A DNA stretch of 64,000 bases, taken from an uncultured Candidatus Saccharibacteria bacterium (GTDB lineage Bacteria; Patescibacteriota; Saccharimonadia; Saccharimonadales; Saccharimonadaceae). This document shows positions 10,184 to 62,881 of the stretch, piece by piece. The notes beneath the pieces are model-generated. The model saw only the letters and a program-made list of their open reading frames with translations, had not been told where the DNA came from and ran no database searches. The number at the start of each line of letters is the position of its first letter. Positions within the stretch are counted from its first letter, which is position 1. A program made the position numbers and the translations under genes. The stretch is taken from contig CAYOTX010000001.1 in assembly GCA_964407015.1 (NCBI GenBank), positions 1,708-65,707 on the forward strand, written 5' to 3'.

Positions 10184-10258
10184 ATGACTATACAAATTGA
10201 CCTTTTGTGTATCATCTTTTCCGGACGGAAACGCCGAAATAAAAAATCTACTAGATAA
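10184..10258 (+). CDS. Small peptide MTIQIDLLCIIFSGRKRRNKKSTR (candidate type I toxin)
   Basis: Homologous to 61113-61184; preceded by AAAGGT; hydrophobic N-half and basic C-half. Confidence 0.55.
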   Translation: MTIQIDLLCIIFSGRKRRNKKSTR

Positions 10259-10312
10259 TTCAATCTAGTAGACCAACCTTCTGGGAGAGTTTCCTAGAGA
10301 CTCTCCTTTTAT
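10241..10312 (-). ncRNA. Candidate antisense sRNA (two hairpins)
   Basis: TGtTATAAT at 10319-10327 on minus; hairpin with TCTAGG loop; terminator tctactag/ctagtaga plus U6. Confidence 0.55.
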
Positions 10313-10386
10313 GTTTTGATTATAACATAAACTATAAAAATACGAAAGAATTGTGTTATAATAAGCATAAGTAATAAAGGATTTTT

Positions 10387-16590: not shown

Positions 16591-18258
16591 TTATCTGGCG
16601 ATACAACGGAGAGTGGCCCCCCGTCGTCTATCCGTTGCATCTTTTATAAATATGCCATTCTGGGTGAAAGCGAAATCAAATGCACTATTATTATTAATGG
16701 TAGATGACCAGTAAAGCCCCTTTGCATCTAGCCCGTTAATAGACGCGCCATCTCCTATGTACCCAGACTTAATGAAATATAGTGGAGGAACTAAGACATC
16801 TGCGATAACATTCAAATTATATAGGTATTTTAGCCTAGCGAACTCATTAGTGGAATTAACCATGGCTTCAGATTGATTAGATATAGTGGACAATCTCCAC
16901 CCTTTAGGGCAAATAGAATTTTTGGGGTTATTAGATACATTATTTGATGTATCTTGTGTTAATGTGGAAGAATCATTGCTAGCAATTGCTACAGTCCAGT
17001 TATAATAATTACCCAATGATGAATGGCCAGTGTTAGTGCTATCGGTTTTATTGGCAGAATATGGTACGGTATTACTATCATTCCAGTCGTCCGCCCTAAT
17101 ACCCTCAAAACCCATAGTCTTCGCAGACATTGCTGGCGTCCAAGTAGTAATACCAGTATTCACATCGTAAGTATATCTACTCGCATAAGCGCCGACAAGC
17201 GAGTGGTCCGTAAGATCGGTATCGTTTGAAGTAAGTGATTTCATCACTTCTTGGCCTTGTTCGTTTGTATAAGCGACTAAATCTAAACCTAAGTTTTGCG
17301 TCATCCAGCAATGCCCATCTTGCAACTTGGCCACCCAGTATAACTTATTATCTCTAATATCTATTAGTTGAGTTTGTGAGGCTTCATCATATGAGCCTAC
17401 TGAATTACAAATATATGAGTTCATGTCTTGCATAGTATAATAAGTGCCGCTTTCTGTGTTAACTGGATTTTTGCCCTGTGATGCGTAAGCTTCGTTAAAG
17501 CCTAAATGGTTGTTGTTGCTACTGGGATGCACCATCAAGTACTTCACTTTCCCATTATAAGTACCAGCAGGCTGTACAGAACTAGCATAGACATCATAGG
17601 TAGTAGCAAAGTATGAACCAGTAATATCAGTATCTATAGTCATATTAGTACCAGAAGCTCTAGAGGCTACTAGTGTATAGTTATTTGGTACTACATTATA
17701 ATTATCGTAGTTATTTACGATAGTAGGAGGAGTAATAGCAATACTAGCACCAGTATCAGGATTAAGACCTGTGCCTATACCAGGAGCTAGTTTCATACCC
17801 CAAGATGATGGAGTAAGACTACTAGAGCTTCCTTCGTCATAAATACCAGTCTTAATATTATAACCATCATTATTACTACTAATTAAATCTGTATTACCAT
17901 CTATGTTATTACTACTACCTATAGCATAGATACTATAGCCATTATTATCATTACAATAAGCATTAACTCTAGTACTACCAATATCTACTGTATGAGTACC
18001 AGCATTAACATTAACTGTATGGGCTCTATCTATACTACTGCTCAAAGTACAAGCAGAAGAAATGGAGATGCTGAGGCTGTCTGAGCTGGTGTTATTATCT
18101 GCGGAGGAATGAGGAAGAGATAAGACTAGGGTAGAAATAATGAGCAATGGGATTAAAATAAGTAATATATTCCGGAATGAATAATAGAAGAAATCTGTGT
18201 AACTGCTTGCTTTATGATCTTTTTCTTTTATTTTAGATTTTGTAGTTCTATAGCCCAT
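16591..18258 (-). CDS. Secreted FISUMP (Fib_succ_major)-type protein A
   Basis: Signal/TM, WxL-like beta domain, DIRDNKLYWVAKLQDGHCWMTQNL, ICPKGWRL, YWSST...RC; SD AAGGTG fits ATG at 18258 (ORF track start 18267). Confidence 0.8.
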   Translation of the reverse strand: MGYRTTKSKIKEKDHKASSYTDFFYYSFRNILLILIPLLIISTLVLSLPHSSADNNTSSDSLSISISSACTLSSSIDRAHTVNVNAGTHTVDIGSTRVNAYCNDNNGYSIYAIGSSNNIDGNTDLISSNNDGYNIKTGIYDEGSSSSLTPSSWGMKLAPGIGTGLNPDTGASIAITPPTIVNNYDNYNVVPNNYTLVASRASGTNMTIDTDITGSYFATTYDVYASSVQPAGTYNGKVKYLMVHPSSNNNHLGFNEAYASQGKNPVNTESGTYYTMQDMNSYICNSVGSYDEASQTQLIDIRDNKLYWVAKLQDGHCWMTQNLGLDLVAYTNEQGQEVMKSLTSNDTDLTDHSLVGAYASRYTYDVNTGITTWTPAMSAKTMGFEGIRADDWNDSNTVPYSANKTDSTNTGHSSLGNYYNWTVAIASNDSSTLTQDTSNNVSNNPKNSICPKGWRLSTISNQSEAMVNSTNEFARLKYLYNLNVIADVLVPPLYFIKSGYIGDGASINGLDAKGLYWSSTINNNSAFDFAFTQNGIFIKDATDRRRGATLRCIAR

Positions 18259-18293
18259 ATGCATCACCTTGTTTAATTATCTTTATCTTTGTG

Positions 18294-18466
18294 ATGCCAT
18301 TTTGTGTAAACGGGGTATATTACAAAAATGGCACCGCAAGGGGTGCAATTACTAACAGCCAACATCCGAATTCGAACACAGCCGTAAAGTTCCTCGCGGT
18401 ACCATTTTTAACTGTGTTCGAGCTATTAAAATAACTCGGAATTTATTTAGTTGTTAGTAATTGCAC
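18294..18466 (-). ncRNA. Structured 5' leader RNA, copy 1
   Basis: 15-bp P1 GTGCAATTACTAACA/TGTTAGTAATTGCAC 4 nt after TGgTATAAT; invariant 23-mer at 18324-18346. Confidence 0.7.
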
Positions 18467-18509
18467 TTTTATTATACCATGCTAATGATTTTTGTGGTAT
18501 AATTTAGTT

Positions 18510-18580
18510 ATAAAAAGAGAAGCCCTCTAGGAAGACTTCTCTGGGTTGTTTTGATTAGGCTTTAAGGCCTAATCTTTTTT
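18510..18580 (+). ncRNA. Candidate antisense sRNA (two hairpins)
   Basis: TGgTATAAT at 18495-18503; hairpin agagaag..TCTAGG..cttctct; terminator gattaggc/gcctaatc plus T6. Confidence 0.6.
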
Positions 18581-18634
18581 CTTCGGTTTGTTGTCTTTGT
18601 CTCGGTTTATAATGATTAGTGCAAACTGAAACAT
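18569..18634 (-). CDS. Small peptide MFQFALIIINRDKDNKPKKKD (candidate type I toxin)
   Basis: SD AAAGG; TTGAAA-N18-TATAAT promoter (18792-18763); ~125-nt UTR homologous to the 60985-61110 region. Confidence 0.55.
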   Translation of the reverse strand: MFQFALIIINRDKDNKPKKKD

Positions 18635-18979
18635 TATTTAACCTTTCTAGGGCAACTTTAACTTACCTAGAATAGCCGTTTAGTGAGCCCTCACACAACC
18701 ACAAACTCTTTTAGGGCTTGCGTACTCTATGCCCATTAAACACCCGAAGCCAACCCGGCGCTATTATATGCACAGGTGCGAAAATATTTCAACCCCCCTG
18801 ACGATATAATGAAGCCATAAGAGGTTTTACCTCTGGAAAATTTCATATCACGCTTGCGGTAAAAATAAGCCTAGACGGAATAGAAGGGGGATTTATACGC
18901 GGTGATTCTAGATAGCCTAGATTTATCTCCCCAAATTTTTAGTTTCTAACAAAAACAAAAAAACGAAAGGAGAACGAAG

Positions 18980-19054
18980 ATGTCTATAAAGTTTAATCTT
19001 GTATTCAAATTCGGTTCTAAAACGAGAAAAATTACCATCCGTATAGAGTGGTAA
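18980..19054 (+). CDS. Small peptide MSIKFNLVFKFGSKTRKITIRIEW
   Basis: Strong SD AAAGGAG; 3' end overlapped by an antisense transcription unit. Confidence 0.55.
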   Translation: MSIKFNLVFKFGSKTRKITIRIEW

Positions 19055-19097
19055 TCCTTCTCCAAACCTATGGCAAGTTTCTAGAGCTTGCCTCTTG
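19025..19097 (-). ncRNA. Candidate antisense sRNA (two hairpins)
   Basis: TTGACA-N17-TATACT at 19131-19103; hairpin ggcaag-CTCTAGAA-acttgcc; terminator attacca/tggtaat plus U run. Confidence 0.6.
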
Positions 19098-19159
19098 ATA
19101 TAAGTATAAGTGACATTGCAAGAGATGTCAAGATTGCGCGCTAGTGATATAATAGAGGA

Positions 19160-19576
19160 ATGAAGAAGAAAAAGACCCCAGATATGGTGACGGTGAACCG
19201 TAAGGCGCATTTTGATTATGCGCTAGGCGATGAGCTGACGGTGGGAATGAGTCTGGCGGGGCCAGAAGTGCGGGCGATACGCGACCACCATGTGCAGCTT
19301 AAAGGATCTTTTGTGACGATAAGAAATGATGAACTGTGGCTGAATAATTTGACACTCGGTGCAGAAACGGCACGAAATATCAAACTACTAGCCACTAAAA
19401 AACAAATTGTGGCACTAGAACGTGAAAAAGTAGCGGGATCTACCATTGTGCCGGTGAAGTTGCTGGGCGGTGGGCGCCATATAAAATTAGTGATAGCGGT
19501 AGGTAAGGGCAAGAAAAAATACGATAAGCGTGAAACTATTAAAAAGCGCGATATAGAGCGGGGGAGATACGCGTGA
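19160..19576 (+). CDS. smpB: SsrA-binding protein
   Basis: NRKAHFDY, L.G.EVRAIR, GKGKKKYDKRETIKKRD. Confidence 0.95.
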   Translation: MKKKKTPDMVTVNRKAHFDYALGDELTVGMSLAGPEVRAIRDHHVQLKGSFVTIRNDELWLNNLTLGAETARNIKLLATKKQIVALEREKVAGSTIVPVKLLGGGRHIKLVIAVGKGKKKYDKRETIKKRDIERGRYA

Positions 19577-25046: not shown

Positions 25047-25095
25047 ATTTTTATTTTAACATGTAGCGTGCTATAATCGTAACATTAACAATTTA

Positions 25096-25184
25096 ATATC
25101 AAGAAGGGGCGAGGGAACGGCCTGGTGACCCCCTACCAACCTAGCTAGACCAAGGTGGTAAATCCGACCAGAAAGGAAAGATAT
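25096..25184 (+). promoter_or_regulatory. SAM riboswitch (SAM-I superfamily)
   Basis: ATATCAAGA..GAGGGAACGGCC..TGA.CCCC..CAACC...AAGGTGGTAAATCC...GATAT directly upstream of metK. Confidence 0.9.
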
Positions 25185-26145
25185 GTTCTATAGAACTGCG
25201 GAGAGCGTTTCTCCGAAACACCCAGATAAATTATGTGACCAAATAAGTGATGCGATACTGGATGCGTATTTTGAAAAAGATCCAAATGCGCGCGTAGCGG
25301 CAGAGGCTTGTGGCGGGCACGGCGTAGTGTTTGTAACTGGTGAGATTACATCTGAGGCGGATGTGGATATTCCGGCCATAGTGAAACGAATTGCCGGAGA
25401 TGGCATAGAGGTGCATACCAAAATTGTGAAGCAGTCGCCAGAAATTGCGCAAGGCGTAGATACTGGTGGGGCGGGCGATCAGGGCATAATGATAGGCTAT
25501 GCGTGTGATGAAACGCCGGAAATGTTGCCGCGCGAAGTAGTGCTGGCACGTCGGCTAAACCAGTATATATATGAAAAGTACCCATTTGATGGCAAAACGC
25601 AGATTACAATAGCGCCAGATGTAAGTATTGATTCTATTGTGGCGAGTTTTCAAAATGCACCACGTGAAGAATTAGAGAAATTAGTGCGAGAATTTATAGA
25701 AAAGGAAAAGTTGACTGGGAAGTTAGAACTGCATATTAATCCGGCTGGGGATTGGCAACAAGGTGGCTTTGATGCGGATACGGGTCTGACCGGGCGGAAA
25801 CTAATAGTAGATAACTATGGGCCACGGGTGGCGATAGGTGGAGGATGCTATTCTGGTAAAGATCCATCTAAGGTGGATAGGAGTGCAGCGTATATGGCAC
25901 GGCGAATTGCGGTGAATTATTTAAGAAAACGCAAGGCGCATGAAGTGTTGGTGCGGCTAGCATATGCGATTGGCTATGCTGAACCTTTGGAAAAAACGGT
26001 AATCGTAGATGGTAAAGCTGAGGAAATAGAAGGATACGATCTTACGCCAAATGGAATTATAAAATATTTGGATTTGAAGCGACCAATTTACGAAAAAACT
26101 GCGCGGTGGGGGCATTATGGCGAAGGGTTCGACTGGGATAAATAG
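25183..26145 (+). CDS. metK: S-adenosylmethionine synthetase (compact form)
   Basis: AESVSPKHPDKLCDQISD, GAGDQG, DTGLTGRK, GKDPSKVDRSAAY. Confidence 0.97.
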   Translation: MFYRTAESVSPKHPDKLCDQISDAILDAYFEKDPNARVAAEACGGHGVVFVTGEITSEADVDIPAIVKRIAGDGIEVHTKIVKQSPEIAQGVDTGGAGDQGIMIGYACDETPEMLPREVVLARRLNQYIYEKYPFDGKTQITIAPDVSIDSIVASFQNAPREELEKLVREFIEKEKLTGKLELHINPAGDWQQGGFDADTGLTGRKLIVDNYGPRVAIGGGCYSGKDPSKVDRSAAYMARRIAVNYLRKRKAHEVLVRLAYAIGYAEPLEKTVIVDGKAEEIEGYDLTPNGIIKYLDLKRPIYEKTARWGHYGEGFDWDK

Positions 26146-59191: not shown

Positions 59192-60199
59192 ATGGAAAAT
59201 ACTGATCCTATAAAGGAAAGTAATGCGACCGAACCGTTTGATATCTTTCTCTGGGCGAACGAGATTGATGAAGTAAAAAACAACGTTTCGGCGGAGCTGT
59301 TTTTATTTAACAAAAATTACACACCGTACAAGATTAAATATTCAGATAAACTGACCGGTGCAGTGAAATCGATGTTCATGCAAGAGGCGGTGCATTATAT
59401 TATAGAGGAAGCGGACAAGGGCCTAGAGGTACGCGATTATGAAAGAGCAGACGGCGAGGAAAAAGTAATTTACCGCACTTCCCTTTCCAAGGTTGGCCGC
59501 GCCGAAACTTTAATCCACTTGATTGAAAATGAGTATAAAGATATAGATTATTTCTCTGAAAACGAGTATGACTTTAAGAAGGTCAAGGGCATTATTGCGA
59601 AGTTTACTTACCCGGGCGAAGACGGGATGAAGACTTTCTATATTGCGAAGATTTTGCCGGCTTCAGCAGCGCTGAAGGGGGCGACATCTTGGGAGATTAA
59701 CGGCGAGAGTTTTGAACCGTTCTCTGCCGAGATTGCACTCAAGATGCCAGAAGATAACCAGGTGGCAATAGTGGATGGCACGATTATCGTGTTTAACCAA
59801 GCTAAATTTGAGAATTTGTTCCAATATGATTATAAATCGCAGGTGATTGCCGAGGCAAAGGCAAAAGAGTTAACCGAAAAATATAAACTATCTTTTGCAG
59901 AGGGGTTGACCTTAGATGTACTGTTAGCAGACAAAAAGCCAATTCTTAAAAAAGTCCAGGCTATGGATATTGCTGAAGAAATGCCACAGGATAAATTGCT
60001 AGATTACGCGGATGAGATGCAATTAGAGTTAATGACGGACGATGATGGCTCTATTATTATCATGGATGATAAAGATCTTACGATGTTTGTGAATTTGCTC
60101 AATGAAGATTATTATGTATCGCCGGTAAATGGCAAGCGATATGAAATTAAATCTAAAAAATTACTCGGCGAGCCGGATGGTGAACCACCGAGAGGATAG
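59192..60199 (+). CDS. DUF4868/KwaB-like protein
   Basis: C-terminal FVNLLNEDYYVSPVNGKRYEIKSK resembles the DUF4868 pattern. Confidence 0.65.
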   Translation: MENTDPIKESNATEPFDIFLWANEIDEVKNNVSAELFLFNKNYTPYKIKYSDKLTGAVKSMFMQEAVHYIIEEADKGLEVRDYERADGEEKVIYRTSLSKVGRAETLIHLIENEYKDIDYFSENEYDFKKVKGIIAKFTYPGEDGMKTFYIAKILPASAALKGATSWEINGESFEPFSAEIALKMPEDNQVAIVDGTIIVFNQAKFENLFQYDYKSQVIAEAKAKELTEKYKLSFAEGLTLDVLLADKKPILKKVQAMDIAEEMPQDKLLDYADEMQLELMTDDDGSIIIMDDKDLTMFVNLLNEDYYVSPVNGKRYEIKSKKLLGEPDGEPPRG

Positions 60200-60771: not shown

Positions 60772-61112
60772 AGGCTAATTATAACACATTCTGTTTGGGG
60801 AATTTTAGTGTGGGTGAAAAATTGGAAAATTTAAAATTTTATACATTCTGTTATTGCTAAAAATAAGCAAAGCGAAATAAATTTTAAGCCTAGGCAGTTT
60901 GTGATAAAATTGTTGTTCGCGCGGCAAAATATTTTTGTGCGGGTGGGGGTTGAAATTATGAATAGAGTGTGCATATACTATAGGCGGGTTGACTTCGGAG
61001 TTTAATGGGCTAGAGTTCACAAGCTTAAAAATGTATTTAGGTTTGCGGTTGTGTGAGGGTCCATTAAACGGCTATTCTAGGCGAGCTAGGATCCTAGGAA
61101 GGAGATAATTAA

Positions 61113-61184
61113 ATGACCATACAGATTAATCTGCTATGTATCATCTTTCCAAATCGGAAACGCCGAAGTAAAAAATCTAGTTAG
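61113..61184 (+). CDS. Small peptide MTIQINLLCIIFPNRKRRSKKSS (candidate type I toxin)
   Basis: SD AAGGAG; TTGAAA-N18-TATACT promoter at 60950-60979; homologous to 10184-10258. Confidence 0.6.
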   Translation: MTIQINLLCIIFPNRKRRSKKSS

Positions 61185-61246
61185 CTACAAAGCTAACTAG
61201 ACAACCCAAAACTTAGAGAAGTCGTCCTAGAAGGCTTCTCTTTTAT
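61170..61246 (-). ncRNA. Candidate antisense sRNA (two hairpins)
   Basis: TAGACA-N17-TACAAT at 61281-61253; TCTAGG-loop hairpin; terminator tctagttagc/gctaactaga plus U6. Confidence 0.6.
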
Positions 61247-61258
61247 GCTTTGATTGTA

Positions 61259-62881
61259 TCACGAAATTATCTCTATGTCTACAATACGAGCCTCGGCAGA
61301 TTTTATACCGTTGAAATCATTCTCCATTAGTTTAATCAGTGGCACTATTTTATCTTCCGAGGTAAGACTTAGCCACTGCTCTGGAGCATAGAAAGCGACG
61401 AGTTTTAGATTATTACCTTTTCTATCCCTAATATCTAGGCGGAGGTGATTTTGTTCGGTGCCCATGCGAGAAATATTAACGATATCTACTTCCGGCAAGC
61501 GGAAAATCGGTTCTTCGTTCCCTGCACCGAAGGGCTCTAGGGATTTTAGCTCTTCTAGAAATTGCAGAGATAAATCAGAAAGGTTCGCGACATCTAGATC
61601 GGCTTGCTGTTTAAGATATTTTGTTTGATCCACCAGATGTAAGCTTTTATAGTAATCGTTGATTTTCTCGCGAAATGCATAGAGCTGCTTGCTATCCACC
61701 CGCACACCAGCGGCGCCAGCGTGGCCACCACCGCCAATGATAGAATCCTTGGTATAGTCTAGAGCTTTGGCCAAGCTAAAATCGCCAAAGCTACGGCCAG
61801 AGCCCTTAAAAATACCATTTTCTACCTCTGATAGTACAAAAGCTGGACGCTGAAATTCTTCCACTAAACGGCCGGCAATAATCCCCAAGATGCCTTCGTG
61901 CCAAGAGCCGGTCTCTATAATTACTGGATTATCCGAAACGCCGCGGGTGGAAATTTCTTTGATAGCGGCTTGCTGCTCAGTTTTGCGTTTTTTGTTGAGG
62001 TCTTCTAACTGTTCGGCGAGAGCGGCGGCATCAGTAGGAGAAGTAGCACGAAGCAGGTCTAGCGAAAGATGGGCAGACTTCAGCCGGCCGGCGGCGTTTA
62101 ATCTTGGGCCAATCTGAAAACCGATGCTTTCGGCAGTTAAATTTTTTACTCGGGCGCGAGTCATTAATTCTTTTAGGCCAGCGCGGCGAGTTTTTTCTAA
62201 AACCTTGATGCCGTAATAACCAAGAATACGGTTTTCGCCAGTGAGAAGCATATTGTCGCAGATGGTGCCGATCAGCACTAAATCTAGCAGCCACTTCTCT
62301 TGGCCGGCCGGGATGAGACTTTTTTGCACTAAGCCTTGCGCCACCTTAAAGGCCACGCCCACACCGGCAAGGTCCCTCAGGCCATTTACAGCGGCAAAAT
62401 CTGGGCGCTTAGGATTTACTACAGCCAGAGCCTCTGGTAATTCGTCACCACATTCATGATGATCCGTGACGATAGTATCTATATTCAAAGTATTTAGCTC
62501 ATCTATAATGGCATGGTTGCGAGAGCCGCAGTCTACCGTAATCACCAAGGTAACTCCCTGTTTTTTGGCGCGAGAAATTAAGCGCGGGCTCATGCCGTAA
62601 CCATCCGCAAAACGGTCTGGCAACATAATATCTATATTTTCAGGATTGGCGCCGGCCAGGGTAAGCGCATCCGCCATTACGGTACTAGCGGTAACGCCAT
62701 CTACATCGTAATCACCATAGATTAAAATCTTCTCGTTCTCTGCTATAGCTTGATTAATTCTGTCTGCCGCCTTATCTAAATCCGGCAAAATGAATGGGTC
62801 AGTAAGATTTTCGTATCTAGGGGCTAAAAAACTACGGTCTAGCCCACGCGCTTCTAGTAAGCGTTCAAATAATTTACTCAT
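61259..62881 (-). CDS. recJ: ssDNA exonuclease RecJ
   Basis: GDYDVDG, DCGS, TDHHE, GPRLNAAGR, GGGHAGAAG. Confidence 0.96.
   Translation of the reverse strand: MSKLFERLLEARGLDRSFLAPRYENLTDPFILPDLDKAADRINQAIAENEKILIYGDYDVDGVTASTVMADALTLAGANPENIDIMLPDRFADGYGMSPRLISRAKKQGVTLVITVDCGSRNHAIIDELNTLNIDTIVTDHHECGDELPEALAVVNPKRPDFAAVNGLRDLAGVGVAFKVAQGLVQKSLIPAGQEKWLLDLVLIGTICDNMLLTGENRILGYYGIKVLEKTRRAGLKELMTRARVKNLTAESIGFQIGPRLNAAGRLKSAHLSLDLLRATSPTDAAALAEQLEDLNKKRKTEQQAAIKEISTRGVSDNPVIIETGSWHEGILGIIAGRLVEEFQRPAFVLSEVENGIFKGSGRSFGDFSLAKALDYTKDSIIGGGGHAGAAGVRVDSKQLYAFREKINDYYKSLHLVDQTKYLKQQADLDVANLSDLSLQFLEELKSLEPFGAGNEEPIFRLPEVDIVNISRMGTEQNHLRLDIRDRKGNNLKLVAFYAPEQWLSLTSEDKIVPLIKLMENDFNGIKSAEARIVDIEIIS

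Follow-up and report, generated by a model that had tools for sequence, protein, structure and literature searches.

Multi-copy modules resembling type I toxin-antitoxin loci in a family of Saccharibacteria

The window analysed here is a stretch of 64,000 nucleotides (nt) from an uncultured Candidatus Saccharibacteria bacterium (C1:1708-65707), taken from a genome of 828 kb in 55 contigs, designated G000. At 18.5 kb it carries a module in which a folded mRNA for a small peptide is opposed by a predicted small RNA (sRNA) on the other strand. Such modules are about 350-450 bp in size. The collection compared here has more than 70 copies and draws on metagenomes and on about 27 species of Saccharibacteria, namely Ca. 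Nanosyncoccus and its relatives in the ruminant gut. Their comparison gives good support to a new type I toxin-antitoxin (TA)-like family, to which TA function is attributed by reasoning from sequence. The explanation that we hold to be probable is that of a multi-copy family within one Saccharibacteria family, with an mRNA that locks itself and an antisense RNA nested in it. An earlier sequence-only reading of the window had proposed an undescribed family of this type, and the open reading frame (ORF), the predicted nested antisense gene, and the fold-back of the mRNA proved to be conserved across the 70+ copies, with no match to a known family.

Layout of the 18.5-kb module and its antisense unit

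The architecture of the module, the coding constraint on its ORF, the base-pairing constraints, and the conservation of both promoters were established at the level of sequence comparison. The peptide mRNA is coded on the minus strand. Its promoter TTGAAA-N18-TATAAT (18792..18763) has an arrangement, GGGGTTGAAAT...TATAAT, that recurs in most family copies. It is followed by a structured 5' leader of ~122 nt (~18756..18635), 78% identical over 116 nt to the leader of a module at 61 kb. The leader consists, in order, of the fold-back strand GGGTTGGCTTCGG (18756..18744), helix P2 around a variable hairpin, the invariant GUGUGAGG, helix P3, element E1 (TTCTAGG, 18672..18666), and the Shine-Dalgarno (SD) sequence. 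The ORF for 21 amino acids (aa), MFQFALIIINRDKDNKPKKKD, is at 18634..18569 and codes for what is designated a type 2 peptide. Inside its 3' end is CCGAAG (18586..18581), the 3' partner of CUUCGG, and an A-run of Lys codons stands on the mRNA strand directly before hairpin 1 (18574..18553). Next come CAACCC (18548..18543), the 3' partner of the mRNA 5' end GGGUUG, and hairpin 2 (18542..18516), the mRNA terminator, which is followed by TTTTAT.

Hairpin 2 is faced by an extended -10 box on the plus strand, TGgTATAAT (TGGTATAAT, 18495-18503). The predicted antisense sRNA of ~70 nt (18510..18581) would start with hairpin 2 read on this strand, continue through GGGUUG to hairpin 1 (18553-18574), and end at a U-run, so that hairpin 1 followed by TTTTTTCTTC is the predicted sRNA terminator. 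In the loop of hairpin 2, the mRNA has CCUAGA and the sRNA UCUAGG. The sequence-only reading had placed the promoter, the leader homologous to that at 61 kb, the 21-aa ORF, and the opposing -10 box and terminator exactly where they are found, and the TCTAG(G/A)A loop that it noted recurs in each of the four window modules.

The antisense promoter is a family feature. In 51 of 71 copies, the motif TGNTANNNT (TGnTAnnnT, antisense strand) is present with its end 5-15 nt away from the hairpin-2 base, compared with a background of 3% in G000, and the remaining 20 copies have a hexamer similar to TATAAT in this position. Among the copies without TG, several carry a TTGACA-like -35 box at a distance of 17 nt (e.g., L081, L043, L051, and L085). 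Homology between the copies stops right after the antisense -10 box, and a U-run follows hairpin 1 on the antisense strand only. From the conserved promoter and terminator, an antisense RNA of ~70-85 nt nested in the 3' end of the mRNA is predicted. The sequence features of the putative convergent ~70-nt two-hairpin sRNA gene described earlier are confirmed, with promoter and terminator conserved and 19 of 20 hairpin pairs covarying.

RNA data were available as unstranded Logan contigs, in which neither strand nor transcript ends are readable. In four RNA-labelled rumen runs, contigs covered only the mRNA of the 61-kb module (60949/60993 to 61165/61207), with no contigs over recJ or the upstream gene. 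Among RNA-labelled runs, the ORF and leader at 18.5 kb were covered by contigs in two, and the leader of the type 3 module, a divergent form, likewise in two. Runs labelled 'RNA?' also cover the recJ flank and were set aside as uninformative. Unstranded contigs over the modules and not over their flanks are consistent with transcription of the region.

Coding and base-pairing constraints

The ORF is 21-27 codons long in all 71 parsed copies. In the set of copies found by their leader only, codons 5-10 (I-N-L-L-C-I) vary almost exclusively by synonymous changes (ATT/ATA/ATC, AAT/AAC, CTG/TTG/CTT, CTA/TTA, and TGT/TGC), non-synonymous changes are clustered in codon 4 and codons 11-13, and the other two reading frames are closed in 19-20 of 20 copies. 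The ORF is by this sequence signature a real gene under coding constraint, with translation predicted; conservation of the ORF among homologous loci, which the sequence-only reading had named as a test of its proposal, is seen both in length and in the synonymous core. A MITE-like (miniature inverted-repeat transposable element) or non-coding repeat was ruled out by the coding signature together with promoter conservation. At the 3' end of the ORF, CCGAAG and the A-run are kept at the nucleotide level and read in two different frames (..RRSKKS.. and ..APKKKS..), which argues for a constraint at the RNA level on this part of the ORF. In the peptides, a basic tail follows a short N-terminal part that is hydrophobic or beta-prone. 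All are cationic (net charge from +3 to +8); a high beta hydrophobic moment is found in several, which resemble amphipathic beta strands.

Both hairpins of the 3' half are supported by compensatory changes. When 51 distinct 3' halves were aligned with plain MAFFT, 19 of the 20 pairs in hairpins 1 and 2 had changes on both sides (10/10 in hairpin 1; 9/10 in hairpin 2). Hairpin cells were paired in 83%, compared with 37-53% when the partner was slid, and none of 500 shuffles equalled this.

The helix that closes the 5' end on the 3' end is contained in the minimum-free-energy folds of both the 18.5- and the 61-kb mRNAs (z = -4.7 and -6.7), as expected from the earlier claim that the mRNA 5' end pairs with CCGAAG and CAACCC at both loci. 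Its CUUCGG:CCGAAG part covaries (CUUUGG with CCAAAG, CUUCGU with ACGAAG, and G-U intermediates; 0/2000 shuffles), and genome G174 was the first place where compensatory fold-back variants appeared. In the GGGUUG:CAACCC part, complementarity is kept with little variation and weak covariation (156/2000 shuffles). RNAalifold did not recover the 5'-3' helix from full-length mRNAs because MAFFT misaligns the 3' end, where the two reading frames occur.

Another long-range contact was recognized between the leader and the terminator. E1 directly follows CAUUAAAC, and its sequence is the complement of the terminator loop in the same mRNA. The two change together in four concordant classes: UCUAGG/CCUAGA in 41 copies, CCAGG or UCCAGG/CCUGGA in 11, CCGGG/CCCGG in two, and GCUAAGU/ACUUAGC in two. 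No discordant copy was found, and no shuffle was as good (0/10,000 and 0/2000). In the full-length alignment of 26 sequences, this pairing is formed in 94%, and four of its seven pairs are changed on both sides. As E1 is complementary to the terminator loop, the first loop of the sRNA has the sequence of E1. The TTCTAGG...CCTAGAA stem next to the SD, proposed by the sequence-only reading, is present at 18.5 kb; as a conserved local hairpin of E1 with the SD-proximal arm across the family, it was rejected, since no covariation was seen (1098/2000 shuffles as good), and TTCTAGG covaries with the terminator loop instead.

Two further helices were identified in the leader. P2 (GUUUAGUGG:CCAUUAAAC) is 97% paired and encloses a hairpin in which seven of eight pairs covary. 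P3 (GGUGAYC:GGUURCC), which is directly 5' of the SD, is 98% paired with compensatory changes. It was also revealed by RNAalifold, together with a 4-bp pairing, GGUU:GACC, that involves the start codon and never varies. P2 and P3 cross, with two alignment columns in common (alignment A5, columns 100-106/133-139 vs. 23-32/105-113; in the window, ~61058-61064 with 61089-61095), and column 105 covaries with both of its partners. Since both are conserved, the crossing suggests a pseudoknot or two alternative conformations, i.e., a switch, next to the SD. The invariant GUGUGAGG is between P2 and P3. By covariation, the pairing of E1 with its own terminator loop and the second covarying leader helix ending 5' of the SD are new findings. 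The built-in control of translation that is a feature of type I systems (SD sequestration and/or long-distance 5'-3' pairing, with a terminator stem-loop) is represented here by the covarying 5'-3' pairing, the covarying terminator hairpin, and P3.

Distribution, related systems and function

The source genome has at least nine copies, which encode cationic peptides of 21-25 residues; those beyond the window were found by blastn at C1:67 kb and on contigs C11, C8, C14, and C7. Contigs C8 (end, 36212) and C14 (end, 21187) terminate inside module copies; the repeats break the assembly, so more than nine copies may be present. The first 11 codons of the type 1 peptide, written as a degenerate pattern, were searched in one genome per species (185,579 species) and had 50 matches, all in Saccharibacteria or Ca. 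Nanosyncoccus, distributed over about 27 species and often with 3-7 copies per species. A leader-only pattern matched 71 metagenome contigs, on which 22 real modules were recognized, and 20 of these have the SD and an ORF of 22-27 aa from the same family.

A covariance-model search, which the sequence-only reading had suggested as a check, was done with a model of the module 3' half (R1). It recognized six copies in G000. By this model, 41 genomes out of the 101 in the genus have the module, with 1-6 copies each, and so do four of 95 genera in the family, i.e., its own genus and three others. In an order-wide sample, nothing was found outside the family with strict filters and about ten candidates per genome. 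R1 was needed for detection of other genera, as a DNA search of 200 genomes of the family found G174 only. A peptide-profile search of 400 genomes of the order gave no credible match outside G000, and the peptide family is thus narrow. Loci in other genera have the same layout and code for different peptides, MKKISILWGLIAFEFYSKRKSTR, MIKELKLLFGLITIKFYPKNRTR, MTICLKWWRVEVKLGIRVTKNKKSQRR, and MTITIRVWIVELRIRIRFV. At one of them (L172, G693:C1:97.9-98.6 kb), two modules stand in tandem, and the downstream one has an apparent GTG start and codes for MTITIRVWIVELRIRIRFV, a strongly alternating hydrophobic/basic peptide.

The type 2 ORF of the 18.5-kb module has a paralog on C14 and an ortholog, MFQIALIIVNRNKDDKPKKK..., with synonymous changes in another species; both type 2 and type 3 peptides have relatives in other genomes. 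At least three unrelated peptide types are carried on one RNA chassis, with many paralogs per 0.8-Mb genome. At one syntenic site, a leaderless type 1 module in G000 (C1:67.0-67.3 kb, L010) corresponds to a type 2 module with full leader in a different species (L084:7100-7620), which points, as far as the sequences go, to cassette exchange between paralogous modules. The sRNA part persists in truncated or ORF-less copies.

Reports of type I TA systems are confined to Proteobacteria, Firmicutes, and Tenericutes, with one cyanobacterial candidate (PMC12390103), and no paper in the literature searched links them to Saccharibacteria or the Candidate Phyla Radiation (CPR). Rfam gave only noise around the modules, with the window searched at gathering score and the regions 18300-19200 and 60900-61300 at E<=10; near misses were fstAT (17.6 bits, gathering score 72) and ctRNA_pND324 (18.6 bits, gathering score 45).

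The determinants of type I mRNAs include an antisense RNA overlapping on the 3' side and long-distance 5'-3' pairing (PMC8594479), and the layout described here combines the 3' overlap of TxpA/RatA and BsrG/SR4 with the 5'-3' closure of Hok and AapA1. As in TxpA/RatA and BsrG/SR4 of Bacillus, the genes are convergent, and the antisense RNA is on the 3' side and overlaps the ORF end (PMC8594479), with an extended duplex cut by RNase III as the expected mode. Unlike in these systems, to which there is no sequence or profile similarity, the sRNA of ~70-85 nt is wholly inside the mRNA, the peptides of 21-27 aa have no transmembrane segment, and a fold-back and a contact of leader and terminator loop are added. 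With Hok/Sok and AapA1/IsoA1, the modules share the long-distance 5'-3' pairing that closes the full-length mRNA (PMC8594479), but the antisense RNA of those systems hits the 5' or translation-initiation region, whereas here it is directed to the 3' end, the strand with which the 5' end pairs. No homology was found to them, and activation by 3' processing, a feature of theirs, is only a possibility here.

Fst/RNA II (par locus of pAD1, Enterococcus) is similar in convergent transcripts, a common terminator-region structure, a terminator-loop contact, and short motifs repeated in the leader and the 3' hairpin, here containing CUAG. However, the low fstAT score falls elsewhere (18876-18949), the peptide is unrelated, the covarying contact is intramolecular here (E1 with its own loop), and the sRNA loop copies E1 and is not a leader complement. 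MsoT1/MsoA1 of Microcystis aeruginosa is likewise a candidate outside the three classical phyla proposed by de novo criteria (PMC12390103). It is from another phylum and has no similarity to the modules; growth inhibition of E. coli was demonstrated for MsoT1, whereas the present case relies on sequence, with comparative (covariation) support far stronger than for MsoT1/MsoA1.

We infer transcription of the sRNA, direction of regulation, and toxicity of the peptide according to the following scheme. A sigma-70-type promoter would give an mRNA of ~250 nt encoding a peptide of 21-27 residues. In the closed mRNA, the 5' end GGGUUG/CUUCGG would pair with CCGAAG and CAACCC flanking hairpin 1, E1 (UUCUAGG) would pair with the loop of terminator hairpin 2, and P2 and P3 would form a pseudoknot or switch ending just 5' of the SD, with little translation as the outcome. 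The convergent sRNA of ~70-85 nt would start at the extended -10 promoter just outside hairpin 2 and end at hairpin 1, its U-run being templated by the Lys-codon A-run of the ORF, and it would be fully complementary to the last ~80 nt of the mRNA. It would pair with the mRNA 3' region and, because its hairpin-2 loop has the sequence of E1, compete with the leader for the terminator loop. The duplex would be cut by RNase III, which is encoded in the source genome, and peptide synthesis would stay off. If the sRNA were lost or the mRNA processed, a harmful cationic peptide could then be made.

A broader version of this scheme is offered tentatively and is possible at best: a new type I-like class of the CPR, with an antitoxin RNA that mimics the leader and with cationic beta-strand or beta-hairpin micro-peptides of 19-30 aa, in place of transmembrane helices, as interchangeable cassettes on one RNA chassis. 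The leader would dock on its own 3' end through the 5'-3' helix and the kissing of E1 with the terminator loop, locking translation. The sRNA, carrying the leader sequences GGGUUG and the E1 loop, would compete for the 3' sites and switch the mRNA between a locked, stable state and a duplexed, degraded state. With such properties, the modules of this obligate epibiont and its 0.8-Mb genome might serve abortive defence against phages or dormancy.

Several observations weigh against the TA reading. Type I toxins are small proteins (under 60 aa) that arrest growth or kill when over-expressed, an effect counteracted by the RNA; they are usually hydrophobic with a transmembrane helix, and nucleases in a few families. 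The peptides described here fit the size but not the hydrophobic character, as none has a segment of transmembrane length and the longest uncharged run is 5-14 residues; the caution expressed earlier, that they are short for membrane toxins, was justified. No toxin family was found for four peptides in Pfam and NCBIfam at E<=10, where only a chance DMA match appeared. The antisense transcript is a prediction, the RNA contigs are unstranded, and DNA carry-over into the runs is possible. Pairing of the sRNA hairpin-2 loop with the SD region, i.e., the translation start, was rejected as a conserved mechanism, since family-wide covariation is absent (1339/2000 shuffles as good); within the G000 clade this duplex is strong (-13 to -17 kcal/mol). 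The SD is invariant across copies, hence its occlusion gives no covariation readout. As the sRNA targets the leader's own 3' sites, its binding could open the mRNA instead of silencing it. Some copies (10.2 kb and C1:67 kb) do without the long leader. Synteny is kept between species at several loci, as would be expected of a housekeeping small-protein gene no less than of a domesticated TA system.

The main rival does without a toxin. The ORF may code for a non-toxin small protein under cis-antisense control, with the sRNA and the folded mRNA only tuning its level. The product might be a cationic micro-protein associated with the membrane, the ribosome, or nucleic acids, or else a peptide whose target is the bacterium on which the epibiont lives. 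Peptides which are all cationic, in several cases amphipathic-beta-like, and without a transmembrane-length segment agree with such roles, as do ordinary neighbouring genes and the occurrence of the same locus across species, e.g., next to recJ, which suggests vertical inheritance under purifying selection. We nevertheless regard this explanation as rather unlikely. It has to account for many paralogs in a 0.8-Mb genome, an RNA chassis shared by at least three peptide types that are unrelated, patchy presence (41/101 genomes in the genus), cassettes swapped at one syntenic site, truncated copies that keep the sRNA part, and an unusually elaborate translation lock. These traits are typical of TA systems and unusual for housekeeping micro-proteins.

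It is highly improbable that there is no antisense RNA, with hairpins 1 and 2 being the 3' structure and terminator of the mRNA and ATTATAnCA a sense signal or the edge of a repeat. Hairpin 2 is a plausible sense-strand terminator and the RNA data, being unstranded, leave room for this, but the antisense-only U-run, the position of TGnTAnnnT next to hairpin 2, the -35 boxes of copies without TG, and the homology that ends right after the motif all speak for an antisense unit. Least probable of all is a leader acting as a sensor (riboswitch, thermometer, or protein-binding RNA) that controls the peptide in response to a signal, with the antisense RNA secondary: the invariant GUGUGAGG, the crossing or alternating P2 and P3, and the long-range loop contact exceed the need of most toxin leaders, but no Rfam family matches, the leader is dispensable in the intact copies at 10.2 kb and C1:67 kb, the modules have no linked genes related to a ligand, and a sensor would be compatible with the type I TA-like reading, so that both can hold.

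If the type I TA-like reading is correct, the family would extend this class to the CPR. The narrow range of phyla reported to have type I TA is suspected to be an artefact of searching. At least nine copies in a genome of ~0.8 Mb are a notable investment. From the more than 70 natural variants, a mechanism at the RNA level can be formulated and tested; it consists of covarying 5'-3' closure, covarying contact of the leader with its own terminator loop, and an sRNA that copies the leader. Being unlike all known type I toxins, the peptides may point to a mode of toxicity, or to a micro-protein function, that is new.

Other modules and neighbouring sequences

The module at 61 kb has a homologous leader and the same layout, with the mRNA on the plus strand (60950..61247). 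Its promoter is at 60950-60979, and the leader at ~60986-61112 includes the 5' strand (60986-60998) and E1 (61075-61081). The ORF (61113-61184) codes for the peptide MTIQINLLCIIFPNRKRRSKKSS, with CCGAAG at 61163-61168, hairpin 1 at 61175-61202, CAACCC at 61202-61207, and hairpin 2 at 61215-61241. The antisense unit is on the minus strand (61169..61281), with the promoter TAGACA-N17-(TG)TACAAT at 61281..61253 and a predicted sRNA at ~61246..61169, whose terminator (61202..61175) is followed by TTTTTAC. Orthologues of this copy were found at the same recJ-adjacent site in at least five other species. About 0.8 kb upstream of the module, a gene on the plus strand (59192-60199) codes for a KwaB-like domain of the Kiwa anti-phage defence (PF16162, E = 5.7e-8).

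The module at 10.2 kb (10184..10327, plus strand), which has no long leader, is the top match of R1 with 92.5 bits. Its ORF (10184-10258) codes for the peptide MTIQIDLLCIIFSGRKRRNKKSTR, hairpins 1 and 2 are at 10247-10272 and 10283-10306, and the extended -10 box of the antisense unit, TGTTATAAT, is 10319-10327 read as the reverse complement. The divergent type 3 module at 19.0 kb (18980..19131, plus strand) codes for the peptide MSIKFNLVFKFGSKTRKITIRIEW (ORF 18980-19054). Its hairpin 2 (19072-19092) has a UCUAGA loop and is opposed by the promoter TTGACA-N17-TATACT at 19131..19103. In the C7 paralog of this module, the stop codon is replaced, and a related module at L148 encodes MEIEFYFKFVRKPKTKKVTLVVKDEG.

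A conserved block of ~70-110 nt stands upstream of the peptide-mRNA promoter of the 18.5-kb module (18800..18880, minus strand). It comprises TATTCCGCCTAGGCTTAAAATAACCGCAAG, a -10-like TGATATGAA/TATAAT, the hairpin AGAGGTAAAACCTCT, and a YTTATGC motif, AAAACAYTYATGC. The block precedes the -35 box also in the G000 copies on C11, C8, C7, and at C1:67 kb and in other species, with L011, L012, L009, L010, and L084 among its loci. It could be a second promoter for a longer precursor mRNA or a protein-binding site. A small ORF of 9 aa in this block was rejected, as it is present in three G000 copies and not conserved elsewhere.

On the other side of the 18.5-kb module, a structured leader with a long stem and its own TGGTATAAT promoter is on the minus strand at 18270-18470, back to back with the sRNA promoter. 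It precedes a gene for 558 aa (16591..18267) which has no Pfam match and whose C-terminus resembles a Fibrobacter paralogous domain by eye only. Elsewhere in the window, a SAM-I riboswitch (RF00162, 55.6 bits, above the gathering score) was recognized on the plus strand at 25093-25187.

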